Assembly: GCA_040758355.1 (NCBI GenBank)
Contig: JBFLWF010000012.1
Span: 15,870-79,869 of the forward strand
Reading direction: 5' to 3'
Length of the DNA stretch: 64,000 nt
Source of the DNA: Nitrospirota bacterium
GTDB lineage: Bacteria > Nitrospirota > Thermodesulfovibrionia > Thermodesulfovibrionales > Dissulfurispiraceae
Both the position numbers and the translations under genes were made by a program. Positions 1,205 to 21,976 of this stretch are shown piece after piece (the stretch's first letter is position 1; every line of letters begins with the position of its first letter). The notes beneath the pieces are model-generated. The model did no database searches and was not told the origin of the DNA. It was given only the letters and a program-made list of their open reading frames with translations.

Positions 1205-1416
1205 ACCAAATTGAGCGATTCTAAGTTTAAAATATATGTCAGGTGCGGCGAAAAAACTTTAAACTCCGCACTTGCAAAGACATCTATCTTGTATCCGTAT
1301 TCTACAACATTGAATCCTTTTTGAGTAATGCATATATTATCTTATAGCTGCACTTGAAACAACACTTTTTAAAGTCCTTGAGCCGTGCCTGACATATATA
1401 ATCGCTCAACTTAGGT
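1205..1416. repeat. ~210-bp dispersed element with imperfect terminal inverted arms, copy A
   Basis: TTGAGCGATT..TATATGTCAGGTGCGGC..ACTTTAAA / TTTAAAGT..GCCGTGCCTGACATATA..AATCGCTCAA; homologous to 17423-17634 and 21764-21976. Confidence 0.9.
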
Positions 1417-2782
1417 TTAACTTTTTCAATATCTCTTCGCCCATCTTATATACATCGCCTGCACCGAGGGTTATGAGCACATCCCCCTGTTTCAGCTCAG
1501 ACGCTATCCTTTCCATCATTTCTTTCCTGTCAGGAATATAGGTCAGATTTTCAAATCCTGTGCCTCGTATCCTTTGAGCAAGGACTTCCGAGTTTATTCC
1601 CTTAATCGGCCTTTCGCTTGCAGGATATATGTCCATTAAAAACAGCTTATCCGCATTGCCGAAGCTCATTGCAAACTCATCCATCAAATCCCTTGTGCGT
1701 GTGTATCTGTGGGGCTGAAATAAAACGACCACCCTGTTGCCGTTGAAGCATTCCCTTGCTGCCTTGAGCGTAGCCATTATTTCTGAAGGATGATGTCCGT
1801 AATCATCAAAAACCTTGATGTCACTTGCCTCGCCCTTAAATTCGAATCTGCGTTGTATTCCGCTGAAATTGCTCAATGCCTTTGCAATGACATCCACAGG
1901 GATCTGCAGTTCCATGGCAACGGCTATTGCCGACAGGCTGTTCAGTACATTATGTTTTCCGGGCACAGGAAGGGTGAACATCCCCAGCGATTTTCCTTTA
2001 TATACTGCCTCAAAGCTCATCCTTATGCCTGAATGCTCTATATTCCTCGCATAGATGTCCGCATGTTCGGATAATCCGTAGGTCAGGTATTTCCTCTGGA
2101 TTAATGGAATTATCTCCCTGAGATATTCATTCTCCATGCAGACAACCGCAATCCCGTAAAAGGGTATCTTGTTTATGAATAATAGAAACGCTTGTTTCAA
2201 TACATCCATATCCGTGAAGTAATCCATGTGTTCCCTGTCTATGTTGGTTATAACAGCAATTGTTGGATTGAGCTTAAGAAAAGAGCCGTCGCTTTCATCT
2301 GCCTCTGCCACAATATAGTCGCCCTGTCCCAGCTTTGCATTGCTTCCCATGGACTTGAGCTTTCCGCCTATAATCACTGTCGGGTCAAGTCCGCCTTCGC
2401 CGAGCATGGTTGCAATAAGCGATGTTGTGGTCGTCTTACCGTGAGCGCCTGCAACGAGGATTCCGTATTTAAGCCTGCCCAGTTCGGCAAGCATCTCTGC
2501 CCTCGGTATTACAGGGATAGACCTCTGCTTCGCTTCTAAAACCTCCGGATTATCGGCAGAGACAGCAGAGGATATAACAACGACATGGGCGCTATCTATA
2601 TTTTCTCCATTATGCCCTATAAATATCTTTATGCCGAGGTTACTCAATCTATTGGTCGTCTCTGATTCCTTTATATCCGAGCCCGTGACCTCATATCCGA
2701 GGTTATGCAGCACCTCTGCGATACCGCTCATTCCAATGCCACCGATGCCGACAAAATGAATTATCCTGTATTTATTGAACAT
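1406..2782 (-). CDS. murC: UDP-N-acetylmuramate--L-alanine ligase
   Basis: HFVGIGGIGMSG, GAHGKTTT, EADESDGSF, DDYGHHP, FQPHRYTRT. Confidence 0.98.
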   Translation of the reverse strand: MFNKYRIIHFVGIGGIGMSGIAEVLHNLGYEVTGSDIKESETTNRLSNLGIKIFIGHNGENIDSAHVVVISSAVSADNPEVLEAKQRSIPVIPRAEMLAELGRLKYGILVAGAHGKTTTTSLIATMLGEGGLDPTVIIGGKLKSMGSNAKLGQGDYIVAEADESDGSFLKLNPTIAVITNIDREHMDYFTDMDVLKQAFLLFINKIPFYGIAVVCMENEYLREIIPLIQRKYLTYGLSEHADIYARNIEHSGIRMSFEAVYKGKSLGMFTLPVPGKHNVLNSLSAIAVAMELQIPVDVIAKALSNFSGIQRRFEFKGEASDIKVFDDYGHHPSEIMATLKAARECFNGNRVVVLFQPHRYTRTRDLMDEFAMSFGNADKLFLMDIYPASERPIKGINSEVLAQRIRGTGFENLTYIPDRKEMMERIASELKQGDVLITLGAGDVYKMGEEILKKLNLS

Positions 2783-2796
2783 TCCTCACTCCTGTT

Positions 2797-3000
2797 AATC
2801 TCGAATTACCTAAAATATGGCAGCAGGTGCGCTGAAAAGACTTTACACTTCGGAATATCATAAAACATTCTCTTAAATCCGTCACCTACTACATTGCTTT
2901 CTTTTTATGTAAAAGCGTTAATAGTCTTCTGGTATGCACAAAGAACAACGACTTTGTAAAGTCTTTGATGCACACCTGCTGCCATACATTCGTTTGAATT
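2797..3000. repeat. Diverged copy B of the ~210-bp element
   Basis: TATGGCAGCAGGTGCGC..AAAGACTTTAC / GTAAAGTCTTT..GCACACCTGCTGCCATA arms; shares internal ATCCGT..CTAC.ACATTG. Confidence 0.75.
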
Positions 3001-4115
3001 CATTTCTTTATCAAACTCATCGCTAAATCCACGATCTTTTCTGCCGCATCCGTTCTTCCGAACGCCAGAGCTGCCTTCTGCATCTCCTTCCTCGCCTTCT
3101 CATCAACATGGAAATCCCTTATAGCATCTGCCAGCACCTCGCCTCGCAACTCCCTGTCGAGTATCATACGTGCAGCTCCCATGTCTTCGAGCTTTCTTGC
3201 GTTAGACTCTTGATGGTTTGACGCTGCATGGGGGAACGGTATCAATATGGCCGGCTTGCCTATGGCTGTAATCTCTGACAGGGTTGTAGCCCCTGCCCTG
3301 CAAATAACCATATCAGCTATGGAATAGGCCTCTGCCATCTGGTATATAAAAGGAACTACAATGCCGTTAAAGCCGAGCCTCCTGTAAGTATCCTTCACGG
3401 TTTCATAATCGCGCTCTCCTGTCTGGTGGAGAAACTGGATATTTTGCCTTAAATCCAGAAGGTAATTCAATGCCTCTACCATTGCGCTGTTTATGCTCTT
3501 TGCACCTGAACTGCCGCCGAACACAAACACGGTGAATTTCTCCTTTTCGAGGGGGAATAATCCGTAAGCCTTGTTTTCATCGCGCTGCAGTATCTGTTTC
3601 CTTATGGGATTTCCTGTCAGATATGATTTCTCTTTCGGGAAAAAAGAGATGCTCTCCTGATATGTTAGGGCAATTGCATCCACGAATTTACCGAGGAGCT
3701 TATTTGCAAATCCAGGCACGGAGTTCTGTTCGAGTATTATTGTTGGGATACCCTTAAAATGTGCTGTAAGCACCATGCCCACAGATGCATAACCGCCGAC
3801 CCCGATGACGACATCCGGCCTTACCGACCTGAGAATACTGTAAGCGCCTGAAAGAGAGAAAAGAAATGCAATTAGCGCCCTGATTTTCTTAAATAAGGAT
3901 TTTCCTACCAGTCCCTCTGCCTTTAAAAACCTTATGGGATAACCTTCTCTGGGGATAACTCGCGACTCTATCCCATGCTCTGTCCCGACAAAGACCATGT
4001 CACTTTTTTGTATTCTTTCTTTTGGCCCCTGACTCCTGTTAAGGAACTCTTCTGCCACTGCGATGCCGGGATAGAGGTGTCCACCCGTACCACCGCCTGC
4101 AATTATTATTTTCAT
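3000..4115 (-). CDS. murG: Undecaprenyl-PP-MurNAc-pentapeptide GlcNAc transferase
   Basis: GGGTGGH, GGYAS, EQN, GGSSGA, RAGATT motifs. Confidence 0.98.
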   Translation of the reverse strand: MKIIIAGGGTGGHLYPGIAVAEEFLNRSQGPKERIQKSDMVFVGTEHGIESRVIPREGYPIRFLKAEGLVGKSLFKKIRALIAFLFSLSGAYSILRSVRPDVVIGVGGYASVGMVLTAHFKGIPTIILEQNSVPGFANKLLGKFVDAIALTYQESISFFPKEKSYLTGNPIRKQILQRDENKAYGLFPLEKEKFTVFVFGGSSGAKSINSAMVEALNYLLDLRQNIQFLHQTGERDYETVKDTYRRLGFNGIVVPFIYQMAEAYSIADMVICRAGATTLSEITAIGKPAILIPFPHAASNHQESNARKLEDMGAARMILDRELRGEVLADAIRDFHVDEKARKEMQKAALAFGRTDAAEKIVDLAMSLIKK

Positions 4116-4157
4116 AAGGTTTGCCCTGCCATGCTATTTTAGTAAAATGATAAAAAA

Positions 4158-5420
4158 CTATGTCCTTTTCATTTTACTATATCTTCTATATCCCTGTCCC
4201 CTCTGCCATCGTGATTGTTGATCAGCAGACAGTTTATAATGGGTACGGGCAGGAACCGTTACATCGGCTACAGGTTTGTTCATGACATGCGTCCTGTGTT
4301 CTGTTCCGTCTTTGGCAGACTGCACCTTAGAGACATTCAACAGTAATCCTATGGCTGTCATGCTGACAAGGAGCGACGAGCCTCCGTAGCTTATAAACGG
4401 CAGGGGAAGACCCTTTGTCGGGACCATCCCTGTGACAACAGCGAAATTGATAACAGCCTGAACCGCTATCATTATGGATATGCCGAATGCAAGGTAATGT
4501 GCGAATGTATCAGATGTTTTCCGCGCAATGCCGATCCCCTTAATAAACATTACAAAGAACAAAAAGACCACAAAAACCACGCCAATAAAACCCAATTCCT
4601 CGCCGATCAATGAAAAGATAAAATCCGTATGTACCTCAGGCAGAAATGAGAGCTTCTGTTTTCCTTCTCCCAATCCCACCCCATTAATGCCTCCGCTTCC
4701 GAGGGCTATGAATGACTGAACAAGCTGAAACCCGCTGCCCTGGGCGTCCTTCCACGGATCGAGGAATGCCGCAACCCTCTTCCATCGATACGGTTCTGAT
4801 ATGAGCTTGAAAATGACAGGAATGGCAACGATGCCGAGGGATAATATATAGCGCAATCTTATGCCTGATAAAAAGAGCATGGCTATTGTCAGTATGCCAA
4901 GACTCATGACAGCGCCGAAGTCGGGCTGTTTTAGAAATATAACCTGAAACATTCCCATTATCCCTACAGGAATGGCAAACGACAAAAATTTGTCCTTCCT
5001 GTAACTCGGAAGGCTCATGTACCATGAAAGGAATATAACCATCGAAAGCTTCACGAGCTCCGAAGGCTGAAATGTGGAAGGCCAGATCCTTATCCATCTC
5101 CTTGCTCCTCCGGCAGTAACGCCCAGTTTTGTAAAGACCATTACCAGACAGACGAGCGATACAACAAGCAGGGGTATGGACATTTTTTTCAGATATTGCA
5201 GGGGCACTTTATATGCAATAAACATGGCGATCAAACCCAGCAAAACCGTAAACAACTGCTTCTTCAGAAAGCCGAACTGACTTATGACCACGCCTTTTTT
5301 CCGGTACTTCTCCACCATGTCAGGGGAAATCACAGATGTAGAGCTATATACAGCCATCAGACCGATTAATATAAGGAGAAGTACAATAAACAATATCCAT
5401 TTGTCATACTGCTGCTTCAT
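4158..5420 (-). CDS. ftsW: SEDS peptidoglycan polymerase FtsW
   Basis: GARRWI, FQPSE, QPDFG, LPEVHTDFIF, PFISYGGSS. Confidence 0.96.
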   Translation of the reverse strand: MKQQYDKWILFIVLLLILIGLMAVYSSTSVISPDMVEKYRKKGVVISQFGFLKKQLFTVLLGLIAMFIAYKVPLQYLKKMSIPLLVVSLVCLVMVFTKLGVTAGGARRWIRIWPSTFQPSELVKLSMVIFLSWYMSLPSYRKDKFLSFAIPVGIMGMFQVIFLKQPDFGAVMSLGILTIAMLFLSGIRLRYILSLGIVAIPVIFKLISEPYRWKRVAAFLDPWKDAQGSGFQLVQSFIALGSGGINGVGLGEGKQKLSFLPEVHTDFIFSLIGEELGFIGVVFVVFLFFVMFIKGIGIARKTSDTFAHYLAFGISIMIAVQAVINFAVVTGMVPTKGLPLPFISYGGSSLLVSMTAIGLLLNVSKVQSAKDGTEHRTHVMNKPVADVTVPARTHYKLSADQQSRWQRGQGYRRYSKMKRT

Positions 5421-6853
5421 AGCTCCATTACCGCCTTTTTAAACTGCCTCCCCCTGTCCTCGAAATCCCTGAACATATCAAAACTGGCGCACGCAGGCGA
5501 TAGCAAAACCACATCTCCTGGAGAGGCTGCATGCTTTGCCTTTATTACCGCTGCCTTAAAATCCTCTTCCATAAAAACATCTTTTGCCACGTCCCCCACT
5601 GCCTTTTTTATCTTGTCCCTTGCCTCACCGATAAGGACAAGGGACTTAACTTTTTCTTTAATAAGCGGTCTCAAAATTGTAAAATCGCTGTCCTTATCCC
5701 TTCCGCCTGCAATAAGCACTACAGGCTCGCTGAAGCTCTCAAGGGATTTTATAACAGCCCCAACATTGGTTCCCTTGGAATCGTTGATGAACTTTACACC
5801 GTCTATTTCCCTGACAAACTCAAGCCTGTGCTCAAGTCCCGGAAAGATTTTCAGTGTACTGATTACGGTATCGGCACTGCAGCCTGACAATAGCGCCATC
5901 AAAGAAGCAGCCATGGCATTTTCGATATTATGGACGCCTTTAATTTTAAAGGTTGAAGGATCAAGGCAATAGGCTATAGGCGATAGGCCATGGGCTTCAA
6001 CTTCAGGGATATTAAAGCGTATTAAACCGTCTTTGTAAAAAGCGCCTTTAACCTCTTTTTTTCTGCTAAAGTAAAAAATCTCCGGTCTATTGCCTATTGC
6101 CCATTGCCTATTGCCTATTTTCTCTATCTCTTCAGTTGCCGGGTCATCCGCATTCAATACCAGAAAGTCTCCTGACCTTTGATTCAGGAATATCCTGCAT
6201 TTCGCATCGATATAATCGGACATTGAATGGTATCTGTCCAGATGGTCGGGTGTTATATTGAGTATTGCTGCACCTTTTGGCCTGAATGCATCGATAGTCT
6301 CGAGCTGAAAACTCGATACCTCCGCAACAATGTAGCTGATAGCTGACGGCTGATGGCTGATAACTTTCTGTATCTCTTCTGTAAGCGCATTGCCTATGTT
6401 ACCGCCGACAATGGCATTAAACCCGCTGTTTTTTACCATCTCGTAAAGGAGTGCAGTAGTTGTCGATTTTCCATTGGTTCCGGTCACAGCAAGAAATTCT
6501 GTCTTTCTATTGCTGACTGCTGACTGCTGACCGCTGACTATCTGATACGCCAGTTCCAGTTCGCCTATTATCTTTATCCCTTTTTCCGATGCTGCTTTCA
6601 GAGGCGCGATATTTAAAGGTACGCCCGGACTTACAATAATAAGGTCTGTATTTTCGAATAACTCCGCGGGATGATTACCGAGTTGCAGTTTAATATCAGG
6701 ATTAAGTTTTTTCAGGAACGTTTCGAGTTCCCTGATATTTTTTTTGTCTGTTACTGTAACTAAGGCGCCGAGTTTAGAAAGGAGATTGGCTGCGCCAACG
6801 CCGCTTCTGGCAAGGCCAACAATGGTAACCTTCTTACCCTTTACATCTGTCAA
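5417..6853 (-). CDS. murD: UDP-MurNAc-L-Ala--D-glutamate ligase with four heptamer-repeat insertions
   Basis: GLARSG, SPGV, GTNGKSTT, EVSSFQL, NDSKGTN, LSPACASFD. Confidence 0.97.
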   Translation of the reverse strand: MTDVKGKKVTIVGLARSGVGAANLLSKLGALVTVTDKKNIRELETFLKKLNPDIKLQLGNHPAELFENTDLIIVSPGVPLNIAPLKAASEKGIKIIGELELAYQIVSGQQSAVSNRKTEFLAVTGTNGKSTTTALLYEMVKNSGFNAIVGGNIGNALTEEIQKVISHQPSAISYIVAEVSSFQLETIDAFRPKGAAILNITPDHLDRYHSMSDYIDAKCRIFLNQRSGDFLVLNADDPATEEIEKIGNRQWAIGNRPEIFYFSRKKEVKGAFYKDGLIRFNIPEVEAHGLSPIAYCLDPSTFKIKGVHNIENAMAASLMALLSGCSADTVISTLKIFPGLEHRLEFVREIDGVKFINDSKGTNVGAVIKSLESFSEPVVLIAGGRDKDSDFTILRPLIKEKVKSLVLIGEARDKIKKAVGDVAKDVFMEEDFKAAVIKAKHAASPGDVVLLSPACASFDMFRDFEDRGRQFKKAVMEL

Positions 6854-6898
6854 TTCTTATACCCGACCTCGCTGTGTTTTTAACCTCAACAAAAATAC

Positions 6899-7996
6899 TC
6901 ATGATTTATCCGTTGATTCATGTCTGCGGACAGAAAGCTCCTTACCCGAAGACTTCTTTGTTTTCTTTTTGTCTATCTTTGCATGAGAGTTTTTCTTGTG
7001 ACTTGCATGAGCAACCTTTTTTGCCTTGTATTTATGCCTCTTTGCAATTGATTTTTTATGCTTATGTTTTTTATCTGCCTTATACGATGCAAAAACCACA
7101 GGCCTTTCATCCTCGCTGCTGAAAAAGATCATGGGTTCTGCCTTCTGGTTTAAGACATCGTAACCTTTTGATAAAAGCACCGTAGAATCCTCCCATAGAT
7201 TGTCCCGTGCCGATTCGCCCAGGACAGCGGCTATGAGCGTATTTTGTTCCCTTTTTGCAGCACAGACAAAGCAGTGCCTTGCTGCCCTTGTGTACCCTGT
7301 TTTCCCTCCAATGTTTTCTTCATCTGTCCAGAGAAGCTGGTTTGTATTTTTAACGAATATCCTTCTTCCGCTCTCAGAGAATATCTCTTTTGCCCGTGTG
7401 TTGACTACCTCACGAATCAAAGGATATCCGAGAGATTTTTTCATGATTATGGCAAGGTCAAAGGCTGTTATATATTGGTCAGGGCCTGGAAGTCCGGAGG
7501 CATTCATGAACCTCGTATTTTCTGCGCCCAGATGGATTGCCTTGTCATTCATCATCGATACAAATGCATCCTCAGAGCCTGCAGTCGCTTCTGCAAGGGC
7601 AACGGCAGCGCTGTTCACAGACCTCATGAGGGCAAGATACAAAAGGTCTCTTACACTGAACCGTTCCCCTTTCCTGAGGTGGGGGCTTACCGATGGTGTG
7701 TTGGCCGCATTCTCGCTGATTGTGATAATGGAATCAGGATTAAGCCTGTCCAGGGCAACCATTGCTGTTATGAGCTTTGTGGTACTTGCAGGAGGCTGCT
7801 TCAGATTTGGGTTCTTTGCATAAAGTATCTTTTCGCTTGCACTGTCTATAACTACCGCAGCCCTTGCAGAGATATCATCGGCATAGACAGTGGACAGAGA
7901 ATAGTGAATAGTGAATAGAAAGACAACAAGTATAAATAAAAAGATTTCCCTGCCGCCCTTGACCCTTGACCCTTGACCCTCGATCCTTTTCTTCAT
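6899..7996 (-). CDS. D-alanyl-D-alanine carboxypeptidase (peptidase S11) with Lys/His-rich C-terminal tail
   Basis: PASTTK (SxxK), SVN (SxN), GGKTG motifs; N-terminal hydrophobic segment. Confidence 0.9.
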   Translation of the reverse strand: MKKRIEGQGSRVKGGREIFLFILVVFLFTIHYSLSTVYADDISARAAVVIDSASEKILYAKNPNLKQPPASTTKLITAMVALDRLNPDSIITISENAANTPSVSPHLRKGERFSVRDLLYLALMRSVNSAAVALAEATAGSEDAFVSMMNDKAIHLGAENTRFMNASGLPGPDQYITAFDLAIIMKKSLGYPLIREVVNTRAKEIFSESGRRIFVKNTNQLLWTDEENIGGKTGYTRAARHCFVCAAKREQNTLIAAVLGESARDNLWEDSTVLLSKGYDVLNQKAEPMIFFSSEDERPVVFASYKADKKHKHKKSIAKRHKYKAKKVAHASHKKNSHAKIDKKKTKKSSGKELSVRRHESTDKS

Positions 7997-7999
7997 ATC

Positions 8000-9082
8000 T
8001 CACCTCAATTTTAATGTTGCAAGGCTGAATAATGCAAGGATTATTCCTACAATCCAGAATCTCACGATGACCTTCGGCTCGGGCCATCCCTTTAACTCAA
8101 AATGGTGGTGTATGGGCGCCATCTTGAATATCCTCCTGCCTGTAAGTTTAAACGACATAACCTGCATTACAACGGATACTGTCTCTATAACGAATATGCC
8201 TCCCACAACAGCAAGGACTATCTCGTGTTTTGTTATAACGGCGAGTGTGCCCAGTGCGCCTCCAAGCGACAATGACCCGACATCCCCCATAAAGACCTCT
8301 GCAGGATGTGAGTTGTACCATAAGAACCCCAGCGAAGCACCGAGCATGGCCCCGCAGAATACCGTCAATTCACCGATCCCGGGAATATATAGAACCTGCA
8401 GATATTTTGCGAACTGTGCATGGCCGGATATATACACAAGGGCTACATTGGCTATGGTGGCGATGGCAACAAGGCCTATGGCAAGACCGTCTATGCCGTC
8501 TGTGAGGTTCACGGCATTGGAAGATCCGACAATAACAAAAACCGAAAACGGTATATAAAAATAGCCGAGGTCAAAAAGCCATTTCTTGAAAAATGGTATG
8601 CTCAAAACATCGTTATAGGGATCCTTCGGATTCGTATAAAGGAATATTCCTATCAACAGGGCAAGCAATAACTGTAAACCGAACTTGTACAAAGCCTTCA
8701 ATCCCTTTGGATTCCGCTTTACCGATTTCAGATAATCATCGCAAAAACCGATGGCGCCAAAACCCAGCAGCGAAGTCATCACCACACAGATATAGATATT
8801 CCTGAAATTCCCCCACATCAGCATGGAGACAGTGATTGACGCCAGAATTATAATGCCGCCCATTGTCGGTGTACCGGCCTTTGAATAATGGGTCTTAGGG
8901 CCGTCGTCCCTTATCTGCTGGGTCATACTTATCTTTCTGAGCCACCGTATGATATGAGGCGCAATAATGAATGTGACTATCAGGGCGGTCATTGCTGCCA
9001 GGGATGTCCTGAATGTTATATACCTGAATACATTAAAAGGAGAAAAATAGTTATGCAGGCTGTAAAGCAGTTCGTAGAGCAT
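8000..9082 (-). CDS. mraY: Phospho-N-acetylmuramoyl-pentapeptide transferase
   Basis: GTPTMGG, NAVNLTDGIDGL, FMGDVGS, MAPIHHHFE. Confidence 0.98.
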   Translation of the reverse strand: MLYELLYSLHNYFSPFNVFRYITFRTSLAAMTALIVTFIIAPHIIRWLRKISMTQQIRDDGPKTHYSKAGTPTMGGIIILASITVSMLMWGNFRNIYICVVMTSLLGFGAIGFCDDYLKSVKRNPKGLKALYKFGLQLLLALLIGIFLYTNPKDPYNDVLSIPFFKKWLFDLGYFYIPFSVFVIVGSSNAVNLTDGIDGLAIGLVAIATIANVALVYISGHAQFAKYLQVLYIPGIGELTVFCGAMLGASLGFLWYNSHPAEVFMGDVGSLSLGGALGTLAVITKHEIVLAVVGGIFVIETVSVVMQVMSFKLTGRRIFKMAPIHHHFELKGWPEPKVIVRFWIVGIILALFSLATLKLR

Positions 9083-9084
9083 AC

Positions 9085-12140: not shown

Positions 12141-12148
12141 ATTAATTA

Positions 12149-13870: not shown

Positions 13871-13931
13871 AACACCCCGTTACTATAAAATTCTCCCTTT
13901 AAAGCCTCCTTTGGATAGCGAGCTTTCACGG

Positions 13932-14072
13932 CTACCGCACAAGAAGCCATGCAGCTACCATCCACATTACAAGACCAAGGAAAACAGCTATTGCGAAGTA
14001 TTCCAAAAACCCTGTATCTTCGTCTTCATCCAACCGGATGTTGTTGTCCACCACTCATGTCCTCTGCTTCAT
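13932..14072 (-). CDS. Small single-TM protein (40 aa from GTG 14054, or 46 aa if the UGA at 14055-14057 is read through)
   Basis: MKQRT*VVDNNIRLDEDEDTGFLEYFAIAVFLGLVMWMVAAWLLVR; ATG directly after ftsL TAG with AAGGAG upstream. Confidence 0.45.
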
Positions 14073-14408
14073 CTATCTCTCCTTAAAGGATGCCCTGTAC
14101 GGCTCGTTGTCCTTTGCCTTTTTCACATACACAACCTTAACCCTGTCGGGAAAGGCAAAACCACTATTAACAGTGCTATTACCGGCAACCTTCTCAAACC
14201 GCTCAACAGACAACAGGCTTGCCCTCTCTGCTGCAAGCATTTTTCTGTCCTTCATGAGCACGGACTTTTTCTTTTCGAGACTGCTGATGCCGTATTCAAG
14301 GGAAACAAAGCTCGACCGCAGCCATACAATGGAAAATATCGATAAAAGCAGCATTGCAATAGAGAGCGGCTTCAACATCGCAATCAATCTATTTTGTCTT
14401 CTAATCAT
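14073..14408 (-). CDS. ftsL: Cell division protein FtsL-like
   Basis: Position between rsmH and ftsI; TM helix followed by coiled coil. Confidence 0.7.
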   Translation of the reverse strand: MIRRQNRLIAMLKPLSIAMLLLSIFSIVWLRSSFVSLEYGISSLEKKKSVLMKDRKMLAAERASLLSVERFEKVAGNSTVNSGFAFPDRVKVVYVKKAKDNEPYRASFKER

Positions 14409-15309
14409 AACCCTTAACCCCTTGACTACTTATTTTCTCCGCCCCCCTGAGCTTCGCACTCCTCGATGAAGGATTGATCTTTATCTCATCAAAACCGGCG
14501 GTTACAGGCTTTTTCGTTAAAACCTTCACGATGCCCTCTCTGGCATTGTCTCTCACGAAGTTCTTTACTATCCGGTCTTCGAGGGAGTGGTAAGAGATAA
14601 CGCACAGCCTGCCGCCTGCCTTCAACATATTCAGAGCTGATGCAAGACCTTTTTTCAGTTCATCGAGTTCTCTATTGACCTCTATCCTCAGTGCCTGAAA
14701 TGTCCTTGTTGCAGGATGTGTTTTGCCCCTGCCTCCATAAACCTTCATCACGGTATCGGATAGCTCTTTGCACGTATTTATTGGAGACTTTTTCCTGCAG
14801 GTAATAATCGCCTTTGCTATCCTCCTGGCAAATGGCTCTTCTCCGTATTCTTTCAATATCCCCTCCAACTCCTTTTCAGGGTATTTATTCACAACATCCC
14901 ATGCCGTTAATTCCTGTGCAGTATCCATCCTCATATCAAGTCTTGCTTCCGAGGCAAAGCTGAAGCCGCGTTTTAGCTCCTTCAACTGGAGCATCGAGAC
15001 CCCAAGGTCGAACAAAACACCGTCAACCTCTCTTATATTCATGGAAGATAGTATGTCTTCTATCTGCGAGAAACTCCCGTTTTTAAGGAATACCCTGCTG
15101 TTGCCAAGCCTTTCACGGGCATACCCGAGTGCATCTTCATCCCTGTCTATGCCGACCAGCCTGCCATCGGAGCCGAGCATCGAAAGCACTGCCTCTGCAT
15201 GGCCTCCAAGGCCGACAGTTGCATCCACATATGTTCCATTTGCTTTCACGTCAAGCATTTCCATGGTCTCCTTCACCAAAACCGGGATATGCATTAGTTC
15301 ATAGTTCAT
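14401..15309 (-). CDS. rsmH: 16S rRNA m4C1402 methyltransferase
   Basis: HIPV, DATVGLGGH, DLGVS, HPATRTFQALRIEVN, SYHSLEDR, RSAKLR. Confidence 0.98.
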   Translation of the reverse strand: MNYELMHIPVLVKETMEMLDVKANGTYVDATVGLGGHAEAVLSMLGSDGRLVGIDRDEDALGYARERLGNSRVFLKNGSFSQIEDILSSMNIREVDGVLFDLGVSMLQLKELKRGFSFASEARLDMRMDTAQELTAWDVVNKYPEKELEGILKEYGEEPFARRIAKAIITCRKKSPINTCKELSDTVMKVYGGRGKTHPATRTFQALRIEVNRELDELKKGLASALNMLKAGGRLCVISYHSLEDRIVKNFVRDNAREGIVKVLTKKPVTAGFDEIKINPSSRSAKLRGAEKISSQGVKGYD

Positions 15310-15332
15310 AGTCAAAAATAAAAATCCATGAG

Positions 15333-15509
15333 CTATGAGCCGGCATAAACCTCGCCCACATAATGGGACACATTATAGTTGTACAGGGAGAACGGGTCTA
15401 TATGCTCCTTTATCCTGGCGATTATCTCTTCCATATCCTTCTCATTCCCCCATTTTTCATAAAACGGCGATGCCTTTACAGCTTCCCTTACTTCCTCCAC
15501 TGTCAACAT
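15333..15509 (-). CDS. Small hypothetical protein (58 aa)
   Basis: AAGGAGGT RBS before ATG 15509; MLTVEEVREAVKASPFY... Confidence 0.6.
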   Translation of the reverse strand: MLTVEEVREAVKASPFYEKWGNEKDMEEIIARIKEHIDPFSLYNYNVSHYVGEVYAGS

Positions 15510-15582
15510 AACACTACCTCCTTTCTTAAAGGGAGACGGAATGCATAGGGATATTCCCAGCATTCCCCGTAATGTGTTCTGT

Positions 15583-16038
15583 CTACAGTCCATAACCTGC
15601 AAGCACCGACTCATACGCCTTTGCATCAACCTTCTTTGGATCGGTCACATCGCTCCATGAAGCCTTATCCCATATCTCTATCTTGTCCAGTTGTCCGACT
15701 ATGACGACCTCTGTATTTATCCCGGCATCCTGCCTGTGCTCGTAGGGAATGAGTATCCTTCCCTGTTTGTCCATCTCGCACTCGATGGCGGATGCGATAA
15801 CGCGCCTCAAAAAATACTTTACGGCCTCTTCCATCTTTGGCATTGACCGTATCTTTTCCTCCAGCTTGTTCCATTCATCAAGCGGATATATATGCAGACA
15901 CTTGTCAAATGCGGCATTTGTGATATATAGTTTTGAATTAGTGTATTTTTTGGAGATGATGTCGCGGAGAGGAGCAGGGATAATGATTCTTCCCTTAGGG
16001 TCTAAGGTGTAGTAATATTTGCCCAAAAACGAGGTCAT
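15583..16038 (-). CDS. mraZ: Division/cell wall cluster repressor MraZ
   Basis: LDPKGR and MDKQGRI AbrB-like motifs; first gene of dcw. Confidence 0.96.
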   Translation of the reverse strand: MTSFLGKYYYTLDPKGRIIIPAPLRDIISKKYTNSKLYITNAAFDKCLHIYPLDEWNKLEEKIRSMPKMEEAVKYFLRRVIASAIECEMDKQGRILIPYEHRQDAGINTEVVIVGQLDKIEIWDKASWSDVTDPKKVDAKAYESVLAGYGL

Positions 16039-16049
16039 TCCCTTTTCCT

Positions 16050-16073
16050 CCACTTTATACCACTTTTTACCAC
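16050..16073 (-). promoter_or_regulatory. MraZ-binding direct repeats
   Basis: Three GTGG boxes at 10-bp period (plus strand CCAC at 16050, 16060, 16070) upstream of mraZ. Confidence 0.75.
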
Positions 16074-16079
16074 AATGAA

Positions 16080-16109
16080 ATGATATTTATAAAAAATAGG
16101 GATTGTCAA
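16080..16109 (-). promoter_or_regulatory. Sigma70 promoter of the dcw operon
   Basis: TTGACA-N18-TATCAT on minus strand just upstream of the MraZ boxes. Confidence 0.6.
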
Positions 16110-16200
16110 GAAAAAAATGCATTTTTTCAAAAATTTCCATATTATGTGGTATTTTTTTAGAAAAAATACTATATATTGGGCAATATGATAGGGGTATAAG

Positions 16201-17358
16201 GTGTTTTTTGAGGAATTGGAAAGGCTGCGACAGGATAATCTACTCAGGCAGATAAGGGACAGAGGACCCGCTTGCGCCTCTGCAAAGATATTGATAAATG
16301 GCGTTGAACACATAAACTTCTCATCCAATGATTACCTCGGACTTGCGAATCACCCATCCATAACAGAAGCCGCAAAAAAAGCACTGGATAAATATGGATT
16401 CGGCTCAGGCGCATCAAGGCTTTTATCAGGAGGGACAGAATTACATAGCGCGTTGGAAAGAAAGATAGCTGAATTCAAAGGCGCAGAGGCCGCATTGACA
16501 TTTAATTCAGGATATACAGCAAATATAAGCGCCATCCCAACTCTTGCAGGCGAAGGGGATGTCATTTTCAGCGATGAACTCAACCATGCAAGCATCATCG
16601 ACGGATGCAGATTAAGCAGGGCAAAAAAGGCGATTTACAGACACAGGGATGTGGAGCACCTCTCGGAATTAATAAAAAAGGAAAAGGGAAAAAGAAAGGT
16701 AATAATCACAGACACCGTATTCAGCATGGACGGAGATGTTGCACCAATAAAGGATATATATGAACTCTGTCATTCTCTAAACTCAGAACTCCAAACCCCT
16801 AACTCTGTACTCTTATACATAGACGATGCACACGGAACAGGCGTACTGGGCAATGGCAGAGGCGCATTATCACATTTTGGAATAAAACCCGATCCTCAAA
16901 TAATCCAGATGGGGACATTCTCAAAGGCCCTCGGCTCCTACGGCGCATTCATTGCCGCTGACAAGAATATAATAGACTGGCTTACAAACACAGCAAGGGG
17001 ATTTATCTATTCAACAGCCATTCCTGCATGCATAGTTGCTGCATCAATAGAGGCATTGAAAATCCTGCAAAACGATTCATCTCTTGTGAAAAAATTGTGG
17101 CAGAATCGGGAAAGGCTTTTCAAAGGAATCAGGGATTTAGACTTTGATACAATGGACAGCGAAACACCCATAATACCCATTGTAGTAGGCGATACCACCA
17201 CCACACTGAAATTCTCGGAATTACTTATGAGCCACAATATCTATGCCCCTGCCATAAGGCCCCCGACAGTAAAAATACCAAGATTAAGGGTTACGGTCAC
17301 AGCAGCACACACAGAAGATGATATTGATAAACTGCTGAAAGTACTGACAGTTGCATAA
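16201..17358 (+). CDS. bioF: 8-amino-7-oxononanoate synthase
   Basis: FSSNDYLGL, GASRLLSG, NHASIIDG, DDAHG, GTFSKALG, AIRPPTV. Confidence 0.93.
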   Translation: MFFEELERLRQDNLLRQIRDRGPACASAKILINGVEHINFSSNDYLGLANHPSITEAAKKALDKYGFGSGASRLLSGGTELHSALERKIAEFKGAEAALTFNSGYTANISAIPTLAGEGDVIFSDELNHASIIDGCRLSRAKKAIYRHRDVEHLSELIKKEKGKRKVIITDTVFSMDGDVAPIKDIYELCHSLNSELQTPNSVLLYIDDAHGTGVLGNGRGALSHFGIKPDPQIIQMGTFSKALGSYGAFIAADKNIIDWLTNTARGFIYSTAIPACIVAASIEALKILQNDSSLVKKLWQNRERLFKGIRDLDFDTMDSETPIIPIVVGDTTTTLKFSELLMSHNIYAPAIRPPTVKIPRLRVTVTAAHTEDDIDKLLKVLTVA

Positions 17359-17360
17359 TC

Positions 17361-17422
17361 AAGCAAAGCAGGCACGGCTTCAAAACCGCCGCCCTCTTTT
17401 CATTCATGCCTGCTTTGCTTTT
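17361..17422 (+). terminator. Inverted repeat after bioF, possible terminator
   Basis: AAGCAAAGCAGGCA ... TGCCTGCTTTGCTT, 14-bp arms with a large loop. Confidence 0.45.
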
Positions 17423-17634
17423 ACCTAAATTGAGCGATTCTAATCTAAAAATATATGTCAGGTGCTGCGAAAAGACTTTAAACCCGCACTTATAAAAACA
17501 TTTATCTCGTATCCGTCATCTACTACATTGGATATTTGTTGGATGATGCATTTATTATCTCTCATATTCACTTGAACCAACACTTTTTAAAGTCTTTGAG
17601 CAGTGCCTGACATATAAAATCACTCAACTTTTGG
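17423..17634. repeat. ~210-bp element, copy C
   Basis: Same arms as copy A with compensated TGCTGC/GCAGTG change. Confidence 0.9.
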
Positions 17635-17689
17635 CAACGAATTATTGTCATTTGCCAAATAAACACGTTTCTGTTATATTTTTATCTCT

Positions 17690-18700
17690 ATGAATTATCC
17701 CAATAGCTATATATCGGTTATAGGCGCCGGAAGCTGGGGAACCACCCTCGCCTCGCTCCTCGCAGAAAAAGGCTATGACGTAACATTGTGGGCATACGAA
17801 AAGGATCTGGCGGAACACATCAACAAAGAAAGGGTGAATAATATTTATCTGCCAGATGTGGTTATATCAGAGAACTTAAGGGCTACCCATGATATTGCTG
17901 AGGCAGTAACGAATTCCCGCTACATATTAAACGTTGTCCCGACCCAGCACATAAGATCCATATTCACACAGGCCAAACCTTATATAAGGGACGAATCCAT
18001 CATCATAAGCGCATCAAAAGGCATAGAGAACAATACGCTGCTGACCCCATCAATGATAATAAAGGAAATTCTGAACAAACCGGTCTCCGTCCTTTCAGGC
18101 CCGAGCTTTGCAAAAGAGGTAATAGCAAAAATGCCGACTGCAGTGACCCTCGCAACAGAAGACAGGAAGACAGGCCTGCTCCTTCAGGAGGTGTTCAATA
18201 CAGACTACTTCAGGGTATATACCCACGATGACGTGATCGGCGCAGAGATAGGCGGCGCTCTAAAAAATGTGATAGCAATCGCAGCAGGCATCTGTGACGG
18301 ACTCGGGCTCGGGCATAATTCAAGGGCAGCATTGATAACAAGGGGCCTTTCTGAAATAGCAAGGCTGGGCATCAGCATGAATGCGAAAGAAATTACATTC
18401 TCCGGTTTAAGCGGCCTCGGAGACCTTGTATTAACCTGTACAGGCCCGTTGTCGAGGAACTACTCTGTAGGATATAAGCTTGGACAGGGATTAACGTTAT
18501 CAGAGATCATAAGCCAGACAAGGTCTGTCGCCGAAGGAGTGACTACAACGCTTTCTGCATATGACCTCTCAAAAAAATATGCTATAGATATGCCCATAAC
18601 AGAGCAGGTATATCTCACCCTCTATAAAGAGAAACCGCCTAAAGAAGCTGTCAGGGATCTTATGAACCGCACACTGAAATCCGAATTCTATGGATATTAA
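17690..18700 (+). CDS. gpsA: NAD(P)H-dependent glycerol-3-phosphate dehydrogenase
   Basis: GAGSWG, SKGIE, SGPSFA, GGALKN, GLGDLVLTC, SRN. Confidence 0.97.
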   Translation: MNYPNSYISVIGAGSWGTTLASLLAEKGYDVTLWAYEKDLAEHINKERVNNIYLPDVVISENLRATHDIAEAVTNSRYILNVVPTQHIRSIFTQAKPYIRDESIIISASKGIENNTLLTPSMIIKEILNKPVSVLSGPSFAKEVIAKMPTAVTLATEDRKTGLLLQEVFNTDYFRVYTHDDVIGAEIGGALKNVIAIAAGICDGLGLGHNSRAALITRGLSEIARLGISMNAKEITFSGLSGLGDLVLTCTGPLSRNYSVGYKLGQGLTLSEIISQTRSVAEGVTTTLSAYDLSKKYAIDMPITEQVYLTLYKEKPPKEAVRDLMNRTLKSEFYGY

Positions 18701-19427
18701 GAAATTAGAATCACTCCTTAACGACGTAAGAAACGGCAAAACATCCATAGACAAGGCGCTCGATACACTCAAACATCTGCCTTACGAGGATATGGACTTT
18801 GCAAAGATAGACCATCACAGGGGCATAAGAAACGGCGTTCCTGAAGTGATATTCGCAAAGAACAAGAAAACAGACAATGTGGTGGCCATAGCAAATGCAA
18901 TGCTGAAAAAAAGCGGAAGATTTCTCATCACGAAGGCTTCAGAAGAGATATACAGGGCATTAAACTTAAAAAAAGCAAAGTTCTATCCTGAATCAAAAAT
19001 CATCTCTTATGGGGAAACAAAAAATAAAAAGGGCCACATCCTCATCGTTTCAGCGGGAACATCAGATATACCGGTAGCAGAAGAGGCAGAAGCGACGGCA
19101 TCTTTCCTGGGCAGCAGGACAGAAAGACTATATGATGTTGGAGTTGCAGGAATTCATAGGCTCCTGAGCCACAGAAAATTAATACAAAAGGCAAGGGTTA
19201 TAGTAGTAGTTGCCGGAATGGAGGGGGCGCTGCCTTCGGTCGTTGGAGGAATCACTGATAAGCCGGTCATAGCAGTGCCCACATCCGTGGGTTACGGAAC
19301 AAGCCTTGGAGGACTTACAGCATTATTTGCAATGCTCAACTCATGCGTTCCAGGCATTGCTGTCGTAAATATAGACAATGGCTTCGGGGCAGGATGTCTT
19401 GCGCATAAGATAAATATAATTTGCTAA
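18690..19427 (+). CDS. larB: Nickel-pincer cofactor biosynthesis LarB (AIR carboxylase family)
   Basis: AKIDHHR, AGTSDIPVAEE, DVGVAGIHR, AGMEGALPS, VPTSVGYG, NIDNGFGAG. Confidence 0.9.
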   Translation: MDIKKLESLLNDVRNGKTSIDKALDTLKHLPYEDMDFAKIDHHRGIRNGVPEVIFAKNKKTDNVVAIANAMLKKSGRFLITKASEEIYRALNLKKAKFYPESKIISYGETKNKKGHILIVSAGTSDIPVAEEAEATASFLGSRTERLYDVGVAGIHRLLSHRKLIQKARVIVVVAGMEGALPSVVGGITDKPVIAVPTSVGYGTSLGGLTALFAMLNSCVPGIAVVNIDNGFGAGCLAHKINIIC

Positions 19428-19436
19428 ACTTACAGC

Positions 19437-19673
19437 TTAGCAGGAAGGTCCTCAGCCACCGCCAAAGCCGCCAAATCCTCCTGAAGAACCAAAGGATGTA
19501 CTTCCGCCGCCACCAAAGCCTCCAATGGAGCAACAGCTAAAAGCCGAAACCTTCTTTTTTACGTCATTGGAGCCGCATTTCGGACATCTTGTATCTTTTT
19601 CGCTGGCATTTACGCTCTGGAATACCGAGAAAACTTCGTTGCATTTAGTGCAGGCATATTCATAGATAGGCAT
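19437..19673 (-). CDS. FmdB-family zinc-ribbon protein, candidate selenoprotein (...GGG-U-GPSC)
   Basis: MPIYEY-CxxC...CPxCG; UGA at 19452-19454 followed by GGA CCT TCC TGC TAA and a hairpin. Confidence 0.8.
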
Positions 19674-19740
19674 AATAAAGAAACCTCCTGATAAAAATCT
19701 ATTGTTTAATAATTGCATATTAATATATCTAAAGTCAAAT

Positions 19741-20100
19741 TTAATAGGGCGATTTCTGCCGGATTACCGACAGCAAGTCGTGGAGATAAAATGGTTTGTG
19801 AAGAAAGGCATCTGCCCCGGCATCGAGAAAAACCCTTTCATCGCAATCGGCACTAATACCGATTATCAAAGAGTGCGGGCATTGTGAGCGCATTATCTTT
19901 GTAAGCTCTATCCCGTTCATCCCGGGCATGGCATAATCGGTAATGACTATGTCAAAGTCCGATGCTTTCAGGAGATCGAGGGCAGAAACCCCGTCATTGG
20001 CAGCCTGCACATCAAAGCCGTGAAGACGAAGGACATCGAAAAGAAATTTCCTGACCATTTCATCGTCATCTGCAACAAGAACTGTCTTCTGCTTTTTCAT
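19741..20100 (-). CDS. Single-domain response regulator
   Basis: VLVADDD, DYAMPGMNG, KPF receiver motifs. Confidence 0.88.
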   Translation of the reverse strand: MKKQKTVLVADDDEMVRKFLFDVLRLHGFDVQAANDGVSALDLLKASDFDIVITDYAMPGMNGIELTKIMRSQCPHSLIIGISADCDERVFLDAGADAFLHKPFYLHDLLSVIRQKSPY

Positions 20101-20248
20101 ATACAATCGGATAGAGCCTTCATAAAGACTTCATAAAAATATACAATTATAGGTTGTATTTGTCAATACTTTTTACAACCTTTGATTTATAGACTTCACT
20201 GCAATCTTACCTATAGACTTCTTAAACAATTCCAGTCAGGCGGATTAT

Positions 20249-20611
20249 ATGAGAAGAACAGCCGGATATAAAAGGAAAACAACCGGCCAGATCGTGAAGG
20301 AATACCGGAAGGCAAAGGGCATATCCCAGATGGATCTGGCAGAGGTTATCGGCGTGTCGTATCAACAGGTGCAGAAATACGAAAAGGGAACCAACAGGAT
20401 AAGCGTCGACAGGCTTAAACAGATAGCAAAGGCACTCGATGTGCCCATAAACGAATTCTTTTCTCCGGAGAAACTGGTGGTCTCAGAAACACGGGCAGCT
20501 TACGGAAAGATAACGGACGATGAGCAGCTCCTGCTGCATTTATTCAGGGAGATAAAAGATAAAAAGGTAAAGAAAGCTGTTATCGAATTTATAAAGGCAG
20601 TGGCAAAATAG
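20249..20611 (+). CDS. XRE-family HTH regulator
   Basis: SQMDLAEVIGVSYQQVQKYEKG-NR. Confidence 0.9.
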   Translation: MRRTAGYKRKTTGQIVKEYRKAKGISQMDLAEVIGVSYQQVQKYEKGTNRISVDRLKQIAKALDVPINEFFSPEKLVVSETRAAYGKITDDEQLLLHLFREIKDKKVKKAVIEFIKAVAK

Positions 20612-20613
20612 GA

Positions 20614-21057
20614 TTAAAGCTCCATCATCATGATAACCGCATCCTCTGCTGGATTTACATAATAACCCTTCCTTACGCCGACCATGTTGAATCCAAACTT
20701 CTCATAGAGCTTCCTTGCAGCATAATTGGATGACCTCACCTCGAGATAAAAAAACCTGCAGCCCTCTATCCTTAATTCCTGAATCACGTCATCGAGCAGC
20801 GCCCTTGCAATGCCGCGCCTTCTGTAATCGGGGTGCACAGCCAGATCGAGGAGATGGCATTCATCCGCCACATGCTTTACGCAGATATATCCCACAACAA
20901 CTCCATTAAGCTCTGCAACCCTTGTAACCGAATACCTGCTGTAAATCTCGCTGCGGAATGATGTCTCCGACCATGGCGTACTGAAAGAGAGCCTTTCGAT
21001 GCTTACGATTTCAGGGATATCATCTGGATACATTTCACGGATGTATACGGTATTCAT
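20614..21057 (-). CDS. rimI: Ribosomal protein alanine N-acetyltransferase
   Basis: AVHPDYRRRGIA, LEVRSSN, RKGYY..EDA; follows tsaB. Confidence 0.92.
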   Translation of the reverse strand: MNTVYIREMYPDDIPEIVSIERLSFSTPWSETSFRSEIYSRYSVTRVAELNGVVVGYICVKHVADECHLLDLAVHPDYRRRGIARALLDDVIQELRIEGCRFFYLEVRSSNYAARKLYEKFGFNMVGVRKGYYVNPAEDAVIMMMEL

Positions 21058-21737
21058 GAACCAAGCTTTATTTCTGCTTCCGATTTCCTGATGTACAGTG
21101 GCACAAGTTTTATGGGGTCTTCAAACTCGCCCTTTTTTGCTTTTATCATACCGATATATGCAACATTGGCAGGCGAAGGTACCATATCCTGCGGATTTCC
21201 GAATATAGCCGAATCGTTAAGCCATGCTTTAATGCTGTCTTTATAGATGATCGAGCCCTCCCCTAAAAAAATTGTGGGCTCATTTATCCCTGAGAGAAGA
21301 ACATCTATTTTGATTGTCTGTTCATTCATGGCCCTTGCAAAGCCATTTCCATTCCACCTGAATATCCCTGCGTAAACCTCTTTCTTGCGCGCATCGAGGA
21401 GTGGACAAACCTGATATTTGCTGAACGGCATATTCCATGCAAATGCCTCAAGGGTTGCAACAGAGACGAGCTTTTTCCCTGTGGCATATACGAGTCCTTT
21501 TACAGTACTGAGTCCGACCCTGAGTCCTGTAAATGAACCAGGCCCAATGGCAATGGCAAAGACATCTATGTCGTCTATTTTCATACCGGACTGTATTAAT
21601 ATATGGTCTATTGCACCCATTATGCGCTCCGAGTGCGTGACCTTCACATTTATCCGCGACTCGGCAATAAGGGTGTCATCCTCCATTATCGCCACGCCTC
21701 CAACCATTGTGGATGTCTCTATTGATAGTAGTTTCAT
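21054..21737 (-). CDS. tsaB: tRNA t6A biosynthesis protein TsaB
   Basis: LSIETST, GPGSFTGLRVG, DARKKEVY, PLYIRKSEAE. Confidence 0.95.
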   Translation of the reverse strand: MKLLSIETSTMVGGVAIMEDDTLIAESRINVKVTHSERIMGAIDHILIQSGMKIDDIDVFAIAIGPGSFTGLRVGLSTVKGLVYATGKKLVSVATLEAFAWNMPFSKYQVCPLLDARKKEVYAGIFRWNGNGFARAMNEQTIKIDVLLSGINEPTIFLGEGSIIYKDSIKAWLNDSAIFGNPQDMVPSPANVAYIGMIKAKKGEFEDPIKLVPLYIRKSEAEIKLGS

Positions 21738-21763
21738 GCCGCCTCTCTTCTGAATAATCTCAA

Positions 21764-21976
21764 ACTTAAATTGAGCGATTCTAATTTAGAAATATATGTC
21801 AGGTGCGGCGAAAAGACTTTAAACTCCGCACTTGTACATACATATATCTTGTATCCGTATTCTACAACATTGAATACTTGTTAGGTGATACACTTTATAA
21901 TCTCTTATATACACTTGAGCCAACACTTTTTAAAGTCTTTGAGCCGTGCCTGACATATAATATCGCTTAAATCGGA
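21764..21976. repeat. ~210-bp element, copy D; supplies the MFS C-terminus and stop
   Basis: Near-identical arms to copy A; MFS stop at 21930 lies inside it. Confidence 0.9.

Follow-up and report, generated by a model that had tools for sequence, protein, structure and literature searches.

Several families of bacterial transposable elements of the miniature inverted-repeat kind (MITEs), among them ERIC/IRU, Correia/NEMIS, RUP and MITEPye1, are small, AT-rich and intergenic, carry terminal inverted repeats (TIRs) and target duplications, and form co-transcribed stem-loops. When folded in mRNA, ERIC elements have an effect through RNase E that depends on their orientation, and Correia elements are cleaved by RNase III (PMC2229807, PMC10969869, PMC3049150). 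A hairpin MITE has been tied to IS1182 (PMC11578231). Here, we analyzed a 64,000-nucleotide stretch of a Nitrospirota bacterium genome (assembly GCA_040758355.1, contig JBFLWF010000012.1, positions 15,870 to 79,869), hereafter the window, which holds several copies of one ~210-bp element inside operons. The element resembles the MITEs above in size, AT-richness, intergenic position, TIRs and target duplications, and in a stem-loop that would be co-transcribed. RUP is tied to IS630 and MITEPye1 to IS1182, whereas the present element appears to be tied to IS1380; different from all four families, it has a second, inner inverted repeat, which occurs between the ends belonging to several transposase lineages. 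An enrichment between convergent genes is seen for pneumococcal repeats, whereas this element is concentrated in co-directional junctions.

The IS1380-family insertion sequences (ISs; NF033539, PF13701), which include ISEcp1, IS1247 and ISPme1, are probably related to piggyBac and have direct repeats of 4–5 bp. Their CC...GG TIRs of 15–18 bp are like those of the element, as is the 5-bp direct repeat listed for IS1247 (PMC3281130). Different from the element, which is ~210 bp in length and has no transposase, these ISs are 1.7–1.9 kb in length and encode one; the inner hairpin and interior were not found in their ends, and the ISs have no orientation bias, whereas the element is strongly oriented to host genes. 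In the ends of piggyBac, too, one inverted repeat is nested within another and the spacers are unequal, which gives a one-sided bulge on folding (PMC5381638). The inner repeat of piggyBac belongs to the autonomous element, whereas that of the present element did not turn up in the partner IS, and its sequence is free to covary. In the literature searched, which was without supplements, ISfinder and most subscription papers, there was no description of an IS1380-derived MITE; IS1380 goes unmentioned in a MITE review of 2024, and among the papers listed for the taxon none was on these repeats.

Judged on sequence comparison, the element is almost certainly an IS1380-type MITE: gene-less, with IS1380 TIRs and 5-bp target duplications. 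It is mostly ordinary mobile DNA, and its oddity is the inner hairpin, which faces almost always one way in operons.

Terminal repeats, target duplications and partner insertion sequences

The genome is 2.77 Mb in size (93 contigs, 43.6% GC). Profile search identified 58 near-full-length matches on both strands, and the genome-wide search proposed by the initial annotation yields a family of 86 copies by union count, a few short forms falling outside it. The multi-copy, non-coding element of ~210 bp lies within the length range of MITEs (<500 bp). Its outer stem is the TIR of IS1380-family ISs (CC...GG, 15–18 bp), and TIRs of the kind that define a MITE are therefore present.

A scan over repeat length and offset peaked at 5 bp, for a repeat that directly adjoins the CC...GG ends and tends to begin with T and finish with A. 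The first scan counted some copies on both strands; it was redone on one strand for own-genome copies. Both ends are readable in 29 of 71 such copies, among which 6 have a perfect 5-bp direct repeat and 13 match in at least four of five positions, compared to 0.8 and 3.5 expected; none of 5000 shuffles reached the observed values. In relatives, empty sites overlap by about 5 bp; among the 38 gap-free alignments of orthologous empty sites listed, ~10 clean cases show a single 5-mer, the remainder being rearranged, and certain empty sites are secondary losses. The initial annotation had seen no clear target duplication. The duplication is eroded in the four copies that it described, and it becomes significant over the copies of the genome. 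It had favored a structured RNA or an element mobilised as single-stranded DNA (ssDNA), and had named ends matching a catalogued IS, with target duplications, as evidence against itself; as regards mobility, IS1380-family ends, 5-bp duplications and empty sites are what we found. Because of these three features, the element is to be read as a DDE-type MITE rather than as an ssDNA-mobilised element or a stand-alone RNA.

PF13701 matches were found in 11 of 41 genomes and NF033539 matches in 43 of 161, and the partner IS is present in two of four congeners. The IS1380 transposase of the congener G004 scores above the NF033539 cut-off, its IS begins with the outer arm of the element, and young copies and the matching IS occur together in this genome. 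We collected 90 IS loci that hold relatives of the G004 transposase. The repeat of the element is located at both ends of 30 of them (42 by a looser pattern), and the IS flanks show a T-N-N-N-A tendency like the duplications of the element. Most IS loci from L159 to L238 read T-N-N-N-A on both sides, though just 9 of 42 with both ends have identical 5-bp flanks; this scarcity probably reflects joins between copies in the assembly.

The A-type ends of the element are the ends of an unnamed IS1380 subgroup. D-type ends match a degenerate 899-bp IS1380 (L146), G-type ends match IS1380 in L375 and L377, B-type ends are matched in part only (L372), and one end type of genome G003 has a 14-base core in common with the IS ends in L144. 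Compared with the A-type transposase, those belonging to the other end types show 22% identity or no BLASTP match. Longer copies enclosing a transposase, which the initial annotation had thought worth seeking, did not appear: no copy enclosing a gene was found in an end-pair scan of this genome. In the autonomous ISs, an inverted repeat seen by eye upstream of the transposase gene (L159, L238 and L166, 5′ ends) would mask the ribosome-binding site in read-through transcripts. Among other IS families, IS982 (PF13612) gave a single weak match below cut-off, and IS4/IS5-type genes on small contigs have different ends; one IS5 end briefly resembles the inner arm.

The inner hairpin cassette

The inner hairpin is ~30 bp in length. 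Each arm contains 16–20 freely changing pairs followed by a conserved AAAG-N-CTTT motif, the most conserved part of the element. The distance from motif to motif is 115–123 bp in 218 of 237 matches (both strands counted), across interiors that cannot be aligned. The cassette occurs, with its spacing nearly fixed, between the ends of three distant IS1380 lineages and probably of a fourth. Neither the interior nor the inner arms turned up in the 90 IS loci, in which the interior profile had no match, and the interior showed no significant match to seven IS ends; the interior is thus not seen to be a deletion derivative of these ISs. The core ATCCGT..CTAC.ACATTG described in the initial annotation is conserved, except that three, not two, variable bases follow ATCCGT. 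Consensus folds showed no conserved pairing within the interior, and the F- and G-type interiors are unrelated. C exceeds G in the interior on the + strand, and G exceeds C in the mRNA.

The fold of copy A, located between murC and murB, has z-scores of −7.2 on the + strand and −6.6 on the − strand, and none of 200 shuffles was as good. The one-sided bulge is 11 nt in copy A; of 66 copies in which it could be measured, 57 have it on that side with 9–16 nt. Across 44 copies, 92.8% of cells are paired and both sides have changed in 26 of 34 pairs; none of 500 shuffles reached this covariation and slid controls gave 31–44%, the test being inflated by kinship among the copies. Compensated arm changes, G-T pairs on the + strand and a one-sided bulge, as initially described, are thus borne out in alignment and fold, and the covariation on which that description was staked exceeded all shuffles and slid controls in these 44 copies.

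On a tree of 128 copies, parsimony estimates gave 57 compensated changes on internal branches and 26 on the tips, with Watson-Crick pairing lost 13 and 92 times, respectively (Fisher p ~1e-15); an interior-only tree gave 66/15 on internal branches and 52/93 on tips (compensated/losses). As pairing is retained on internal branches far more than on tips, the spreading lineages kept the stem. The proposal of selection on single-stranded structure stands as far as this retention goes, and falls in its part on ssDNA mobilisation. We also observed tandem two-base repairs on short branches and fully matched copies. Template switching during replication can produce compensatory changes (PMC8794818), and the tandem repairs and fully matched copies fit such a process; arm-to-arm copying likely supplies part of the covariation.

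The six subtype consensuses, which are not independent of one another, carry 9 G-T and no A-C mismatches on the + strand, plus tandem G-A/A-G. New single-side changes within subtypes are balanced (28 G-T vs 27 A-C), and tip changes lean to G-T (44 vs 25).

Orientation in operons

Open reading frames (ORFs) were found within 600 bp on both sides of 64 of the 71 copies. At co-directional junctions, the + strand of the element is antisense to the genes in 46 copies and sense in 4; the rest of the 64 lie between divergent (10) or convergent (4) genes. The same bias is seen in relatives (54 antisense vs 8 sense), in copies with F-type interiors (18 vs 2) and in A and B end types pooled (80 vs 9). 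Autonomous ISs, in contrast, have no orientation bias (15/13 and 13/19). In G003, a complete genome, three operon copies on lagging-strand genes are oriented with transcription and a single copy is oriented with replication; replication-strand bias as the cause was set aside as weaker than transcription in this genome, where numbers are small. The median gap from the upstream gene end to the copy is 2 bp for antisense copies and 49 bp for sense copies.

Because most operon copies are antisense, the mRNA carries the minus strand, on which the G-T and G-A pairs become C-A and U-C loops. The initial annotation had listed G-T pairs on the + strand among the grounds for selection on single-stranded structure. 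For an RNA, this argument points to the wrong strand: of 50 operon copies, 46 have the strand with the G-T pairs antisense. New changes are unbiased (28/27). The transcribed strand of copy A is predicted to fold as a rod in which one stem has the murC stop and the start of murB at its base. In A-type copies, the longest predicted helix has a median of 12 bp on the transcribed strand and 17 bp on the other, and is shorter on the transcribed strand in 75 of 100. Both rho and rnc genes are present in the genome. No intrinsic terminator was found in copy A, and a U-run after the stem is not common to the B, A2 and G types.

Copies in the window and their turnover

The four copies in the initial annotation, at the junctions murG–murC (B), murC–murB (A), bioF–gpsA (C) and major facilitator superfamily (MFS) gene–tsaB (D), were recovered in the alignment at the places given there, all on the + strand and with a mean column identity of 77%. 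The common orientation holds for these four; genome-wide, both strands are used. The count of four was one short: a fifth, short member beside copy C had been overlooked.

Copy A (1206–1415, + strand, as are all its parts) is a full-length MITE with A-type ends, antisense to the operon. Its left TIR (1206–1220), assigned by match to IS1380-family IS ends, is short by one base at the tip. Between it and the left inner arm (1232–1263) lies the extra spacer that forms the one-sided bulge in the fold (1221–1231); the AAAG-N-CTTT motif of this arm (1252–1260) is at its end. The conserved core motif of the interior (1293–1312) is followed by the right inner arm (1366–1399), whose motif (1371–1379) is 119 bp from the left one, and by the right TIR (1400–1415), which contains the murC stop codon (1406–1408, minus strand). 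The murB start lies directly at the left end of the copy. In relatives in which copy A is absent, murC terminates differently and overlaps the murB start.

Copy B (2795–3000, + strand), at murG–murC, has B-type arms and eroded ends and is antisense; contigs of runs X2 and X3 lack 2845–2983 of it, and one arm remains. Copy C (17424–17634, + strand) is A-type and one of the four sense-oriented exceptions. It adjoins the fifth member (17353–17419, − strand), an antisense short form in which a G-rich loop closes the arms; this member of the same superfamily has different arms, and its remaining end contains the bioF stop codon (17356–17358). Both are missing from G002, G003 and run X6. Copy D (21765–21976, + strand), A-type and antisense, encodes the final 14 residues and the stop of the MFS protein, which has a different, shorter tail in relatives lacking the copy. 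The murC stop, MFS C-terminus and murB leader are thus supplied by copies, as first described. The left target duplication of copy D (21760–21764, + strand) is identical in three of five positions to the right one (21977–21981, + strand), which occurs as a single copy in the empty allele of G004; in such alleles of relatives, the empty-site comparison suggested by the initial annotation found the single 5-mer. Short 7-mer tandem arrays adjoin many insertion sites (e.g. 1185–1204), and at murB they encode the first codons.

The insertion of copy A is common to G019 and G022. Copy A is old: in the two other genera that share it, it has diverged by 6% and 12%, compared to 46% and 59% at fourfold sites. 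Nine of ten best-match pairs of same-site copies diverge by 1–12%, the tenth having a replaced interior; this comparison takes in retained, alignable copies only, and exchange between copies can lower the divergence. Element-free intergenic DNA diverges by 10–24% (4 to 98 regions per genome) and fourfold sites by 24–59%. G002 cleanly lacks copy A; G001 and G003 have a replacement at the site. G004 carries the same murC–murB insertion in short form, so short forms can arise in place. At murG–murC, G002 has a different subtype, and G001 and G003 have none. A 2.7-kb insertion at murC–murB in G003 and an unrelated hairpin repeat at murG–murC in G022 (L111, L130) indicate that the dcw junctions are hit repeatedly.

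Short forms are ~100 bp in length, with both stems kept and a G-rich loop; 16 were found by pattern, together with a further type with an unrelated interior. Ends, arms and interiors are reshuffled among types, copies are nested in one another, one site may hold different subtypes in different genomes, and in one copy the cassette is inverted relative to the bulge. BLAST matches to the element occur in 9 of 41 related genomes. The two-motif pattern occurs in 14 of 401 genomes of the phylum, with 12 of 34 others of the same family and one genome from another family of the order; exact-motif matches are confined to Nitrospirota, Thermodesulfovibrionales or uncultured-bacterium records. A young subfamily (91–99% identical) has other IS1380 ends (L029:2580–2795, L035, L068, L073, L108, L118) and is nested in A-type copies in the same orientation; it has no BLAST match in the present genome. 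A 27-bp palindrome resembling repetitive extragenic palindromic (REP) sequences is inserted at several positions in the MITEs of one relative (L020, L033, L052, L054, L063, L108, L136) and was not found in the present genome. In a single same-site copy (L027:3035–3247), the interior consists of 7-mer repeats and the motif spacing is still 119 bp. In G003 (L299, L300, L303, L304, L312, L315), the cassette is often flanked by other palindromes or 7-mer arrays, not by recognisable IS1380 ends.

Proposed mechanism and alternative explanations

By analogy with its family, we propose that an IS1380-family DDE transposase would move the element in trans, binding its ends and making the 5-bp staggered target cut of DDE transposition; the partner IS may have been lost from this genome or left unassembled. 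In operon mRNA, the transcribed strand would fold as a rod and bring the upstream stop beside the downstream start. The C-A and U-C internal loops, together with the bulge, would keep helices short and so reduce RNase III cleavage, and the G-rich interior would make a poor Rho site. The opposite orientation would be polar and hence purged. Long-lived operon copies may seed later bursts, and many of the compensated changes are likely the product of template switching from arm to arm and of exchange among copies. That the inner hairpin would make copies tolerable in operon mRNA is a plausible suggestion that we hold only tentatively; the blended reading, an IS1380 MITE whose hairpin is kept for mRNA tolerance, we consider moderately probable.

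Several observations weigh against this blended reading. On the side of mobility, PF13701 and NF033539 searches of the 93 contigs of this assembly revealed no IS1380 transposase. The exact ends were not seen in any catalogued IS among those compared; the closest named element of these, ISEcp1, agrees at 11 of 16 end bases, and its protein is 23% identical. Of the 42 IS loci just 9, and of the 29 MITE copies just 6, have a perfect 5-bp duplication. On the side of tolerance, the gene calls came from a simple, crude ORF finder and the pooled orientation counts include related copies. Most copies with D-type ends (14 of 24) have divergent genes on either side, a setting for which mRNA tolerance offers little explanation. 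The B-type copies, although oriented, have no asymmetry in helix length (6 vs 7 of 15). The folding energy of the whole element is near equal for the strands (+ better in 36 of 58), and tips often break pairing. In one short same-site pair, divergence (0.124) is no slower than at fourfold sites (0.122). Copies are readily lost or replaced, even at murC–murB, and the host therefore has no need of them.

The inner repeat may instead act as DNA in transposition, as a sub-terminal repeat or a pair of AAAG-N-CTTT protein sites at fixed spacing that would help the 210-bp element to pair its ends, with the orientation as a separate polarity effect. This is the main rival, and a rather unlikely one. 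It would account for the pairing kept on spreading branches, the near-fixed spacing of the conserved motif and the presence of the cassette between several lineages' ends, and it has a precedent in piggyBac, with 13-bp TIRs and 19-bp asymmetric sub-terminal repeats (PMC5381638). However, the inner repeat is not in the ISs themselves, the arm sequence is free to change, unlike a binding site, neither the interior nor an intact motif is present in at least 16 short copies, and transposases as unlike as 22% identity would need a common aid. The hairpin might also be a neutral by-product of template switching and copy exchange, its orientation being just a polar signal on one strand. The 26 both-side changes on tips, the tandem repairs on short branches, the lack of strand bias in new single changes, same-site subtype swaps and the one copy with a flipped interior would all be expected from such a process; the persistence in most subtypes of G-T and G-A mismatches, which conversion would erase, the fixed motif spacing and the slow divergence of same-site copies make it improbable. 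The cassette could be a portable stealth device whose transcribed-strand fold hides a 210-bp insertion from the expression of the operon. It would have been captured between the ends of several IS1380 transposase lineages that are unrelated to one another and, at some few junctions (such as murC–murB), long kept as a translational coupler or processing site; we consider this unlikely, only slightly more so than a role as DNA.

Cargo on the + strand, either a functional antisense or small RNA or an outward promoter, is very improbable. The G-U and tandem G-A pairs and the conserved core loop lie on that strand, copy A has one sigma-70-like site there, the right ends of D-type copies face gene starts in 18 of 24, and IS1380 members carry outward promoters, the pathway being unsettled (PMC9330008). 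However, promoters are at chance level (1 found, 1.2 expected), the interior has no conserved pairing and its F and G versions are unrelated, and the Rfam comparison recommended in the initial annotation matched no family, with just tRNAs or chance matches at gathering and E-value thresholds. Mobilisation as ssDNA by Y1/HUH enzymes (RAYT, IS200/IS605), or an identity as an IS110/IS1111 bridge-RNA element, is largely refuted. REP/REPIN–RAYT systems and IS200/IS605 derivatives also are imperfect intergenic palindromes, the present hairpin is long and imperfect, and Y1 transposase genes, some RAYT-like, occur in this genome and in five of five relatives. REPINs and IS200/IS605 derivatives make no target duplication, and the same palindromes flank their Y1 gene; the element, in contrast, has 5-bp duplications, IS1380 ends and no link to Y1 genes, which have their own short, unrelated flanks and lie near the element at just 3 of 18 loci. 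IS110/IS1111 derivatives have an IS110 recombinase partner and ends that are not DDE-type, and no IS110 transposase (PF02371) was found in a search covering this assembly only. Integron attC and bridge-RNA likenesses were dropped given the duplications and IS1380 ends. Two RAYT-like Y1 genes (G000:C10:9158–9900 and G000:C21:12690–13445, the C21 gene broken) each have their own short inverted repeat.

Implications

For annotation, a tempting candidate for a new structured RNA is removed, and the family illustrates that a mobile inverted repeat can give rise to strong covariation. Folding in mRNA is known from other MITEs; what is unusual here is a strand-oriented inner hairpin common to several IS1380 transposase lineages. 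If the tolerance model is true, this hairpin would be a transposon-evolved RNA fold for life inside essential operons, common to several transposase lineages.

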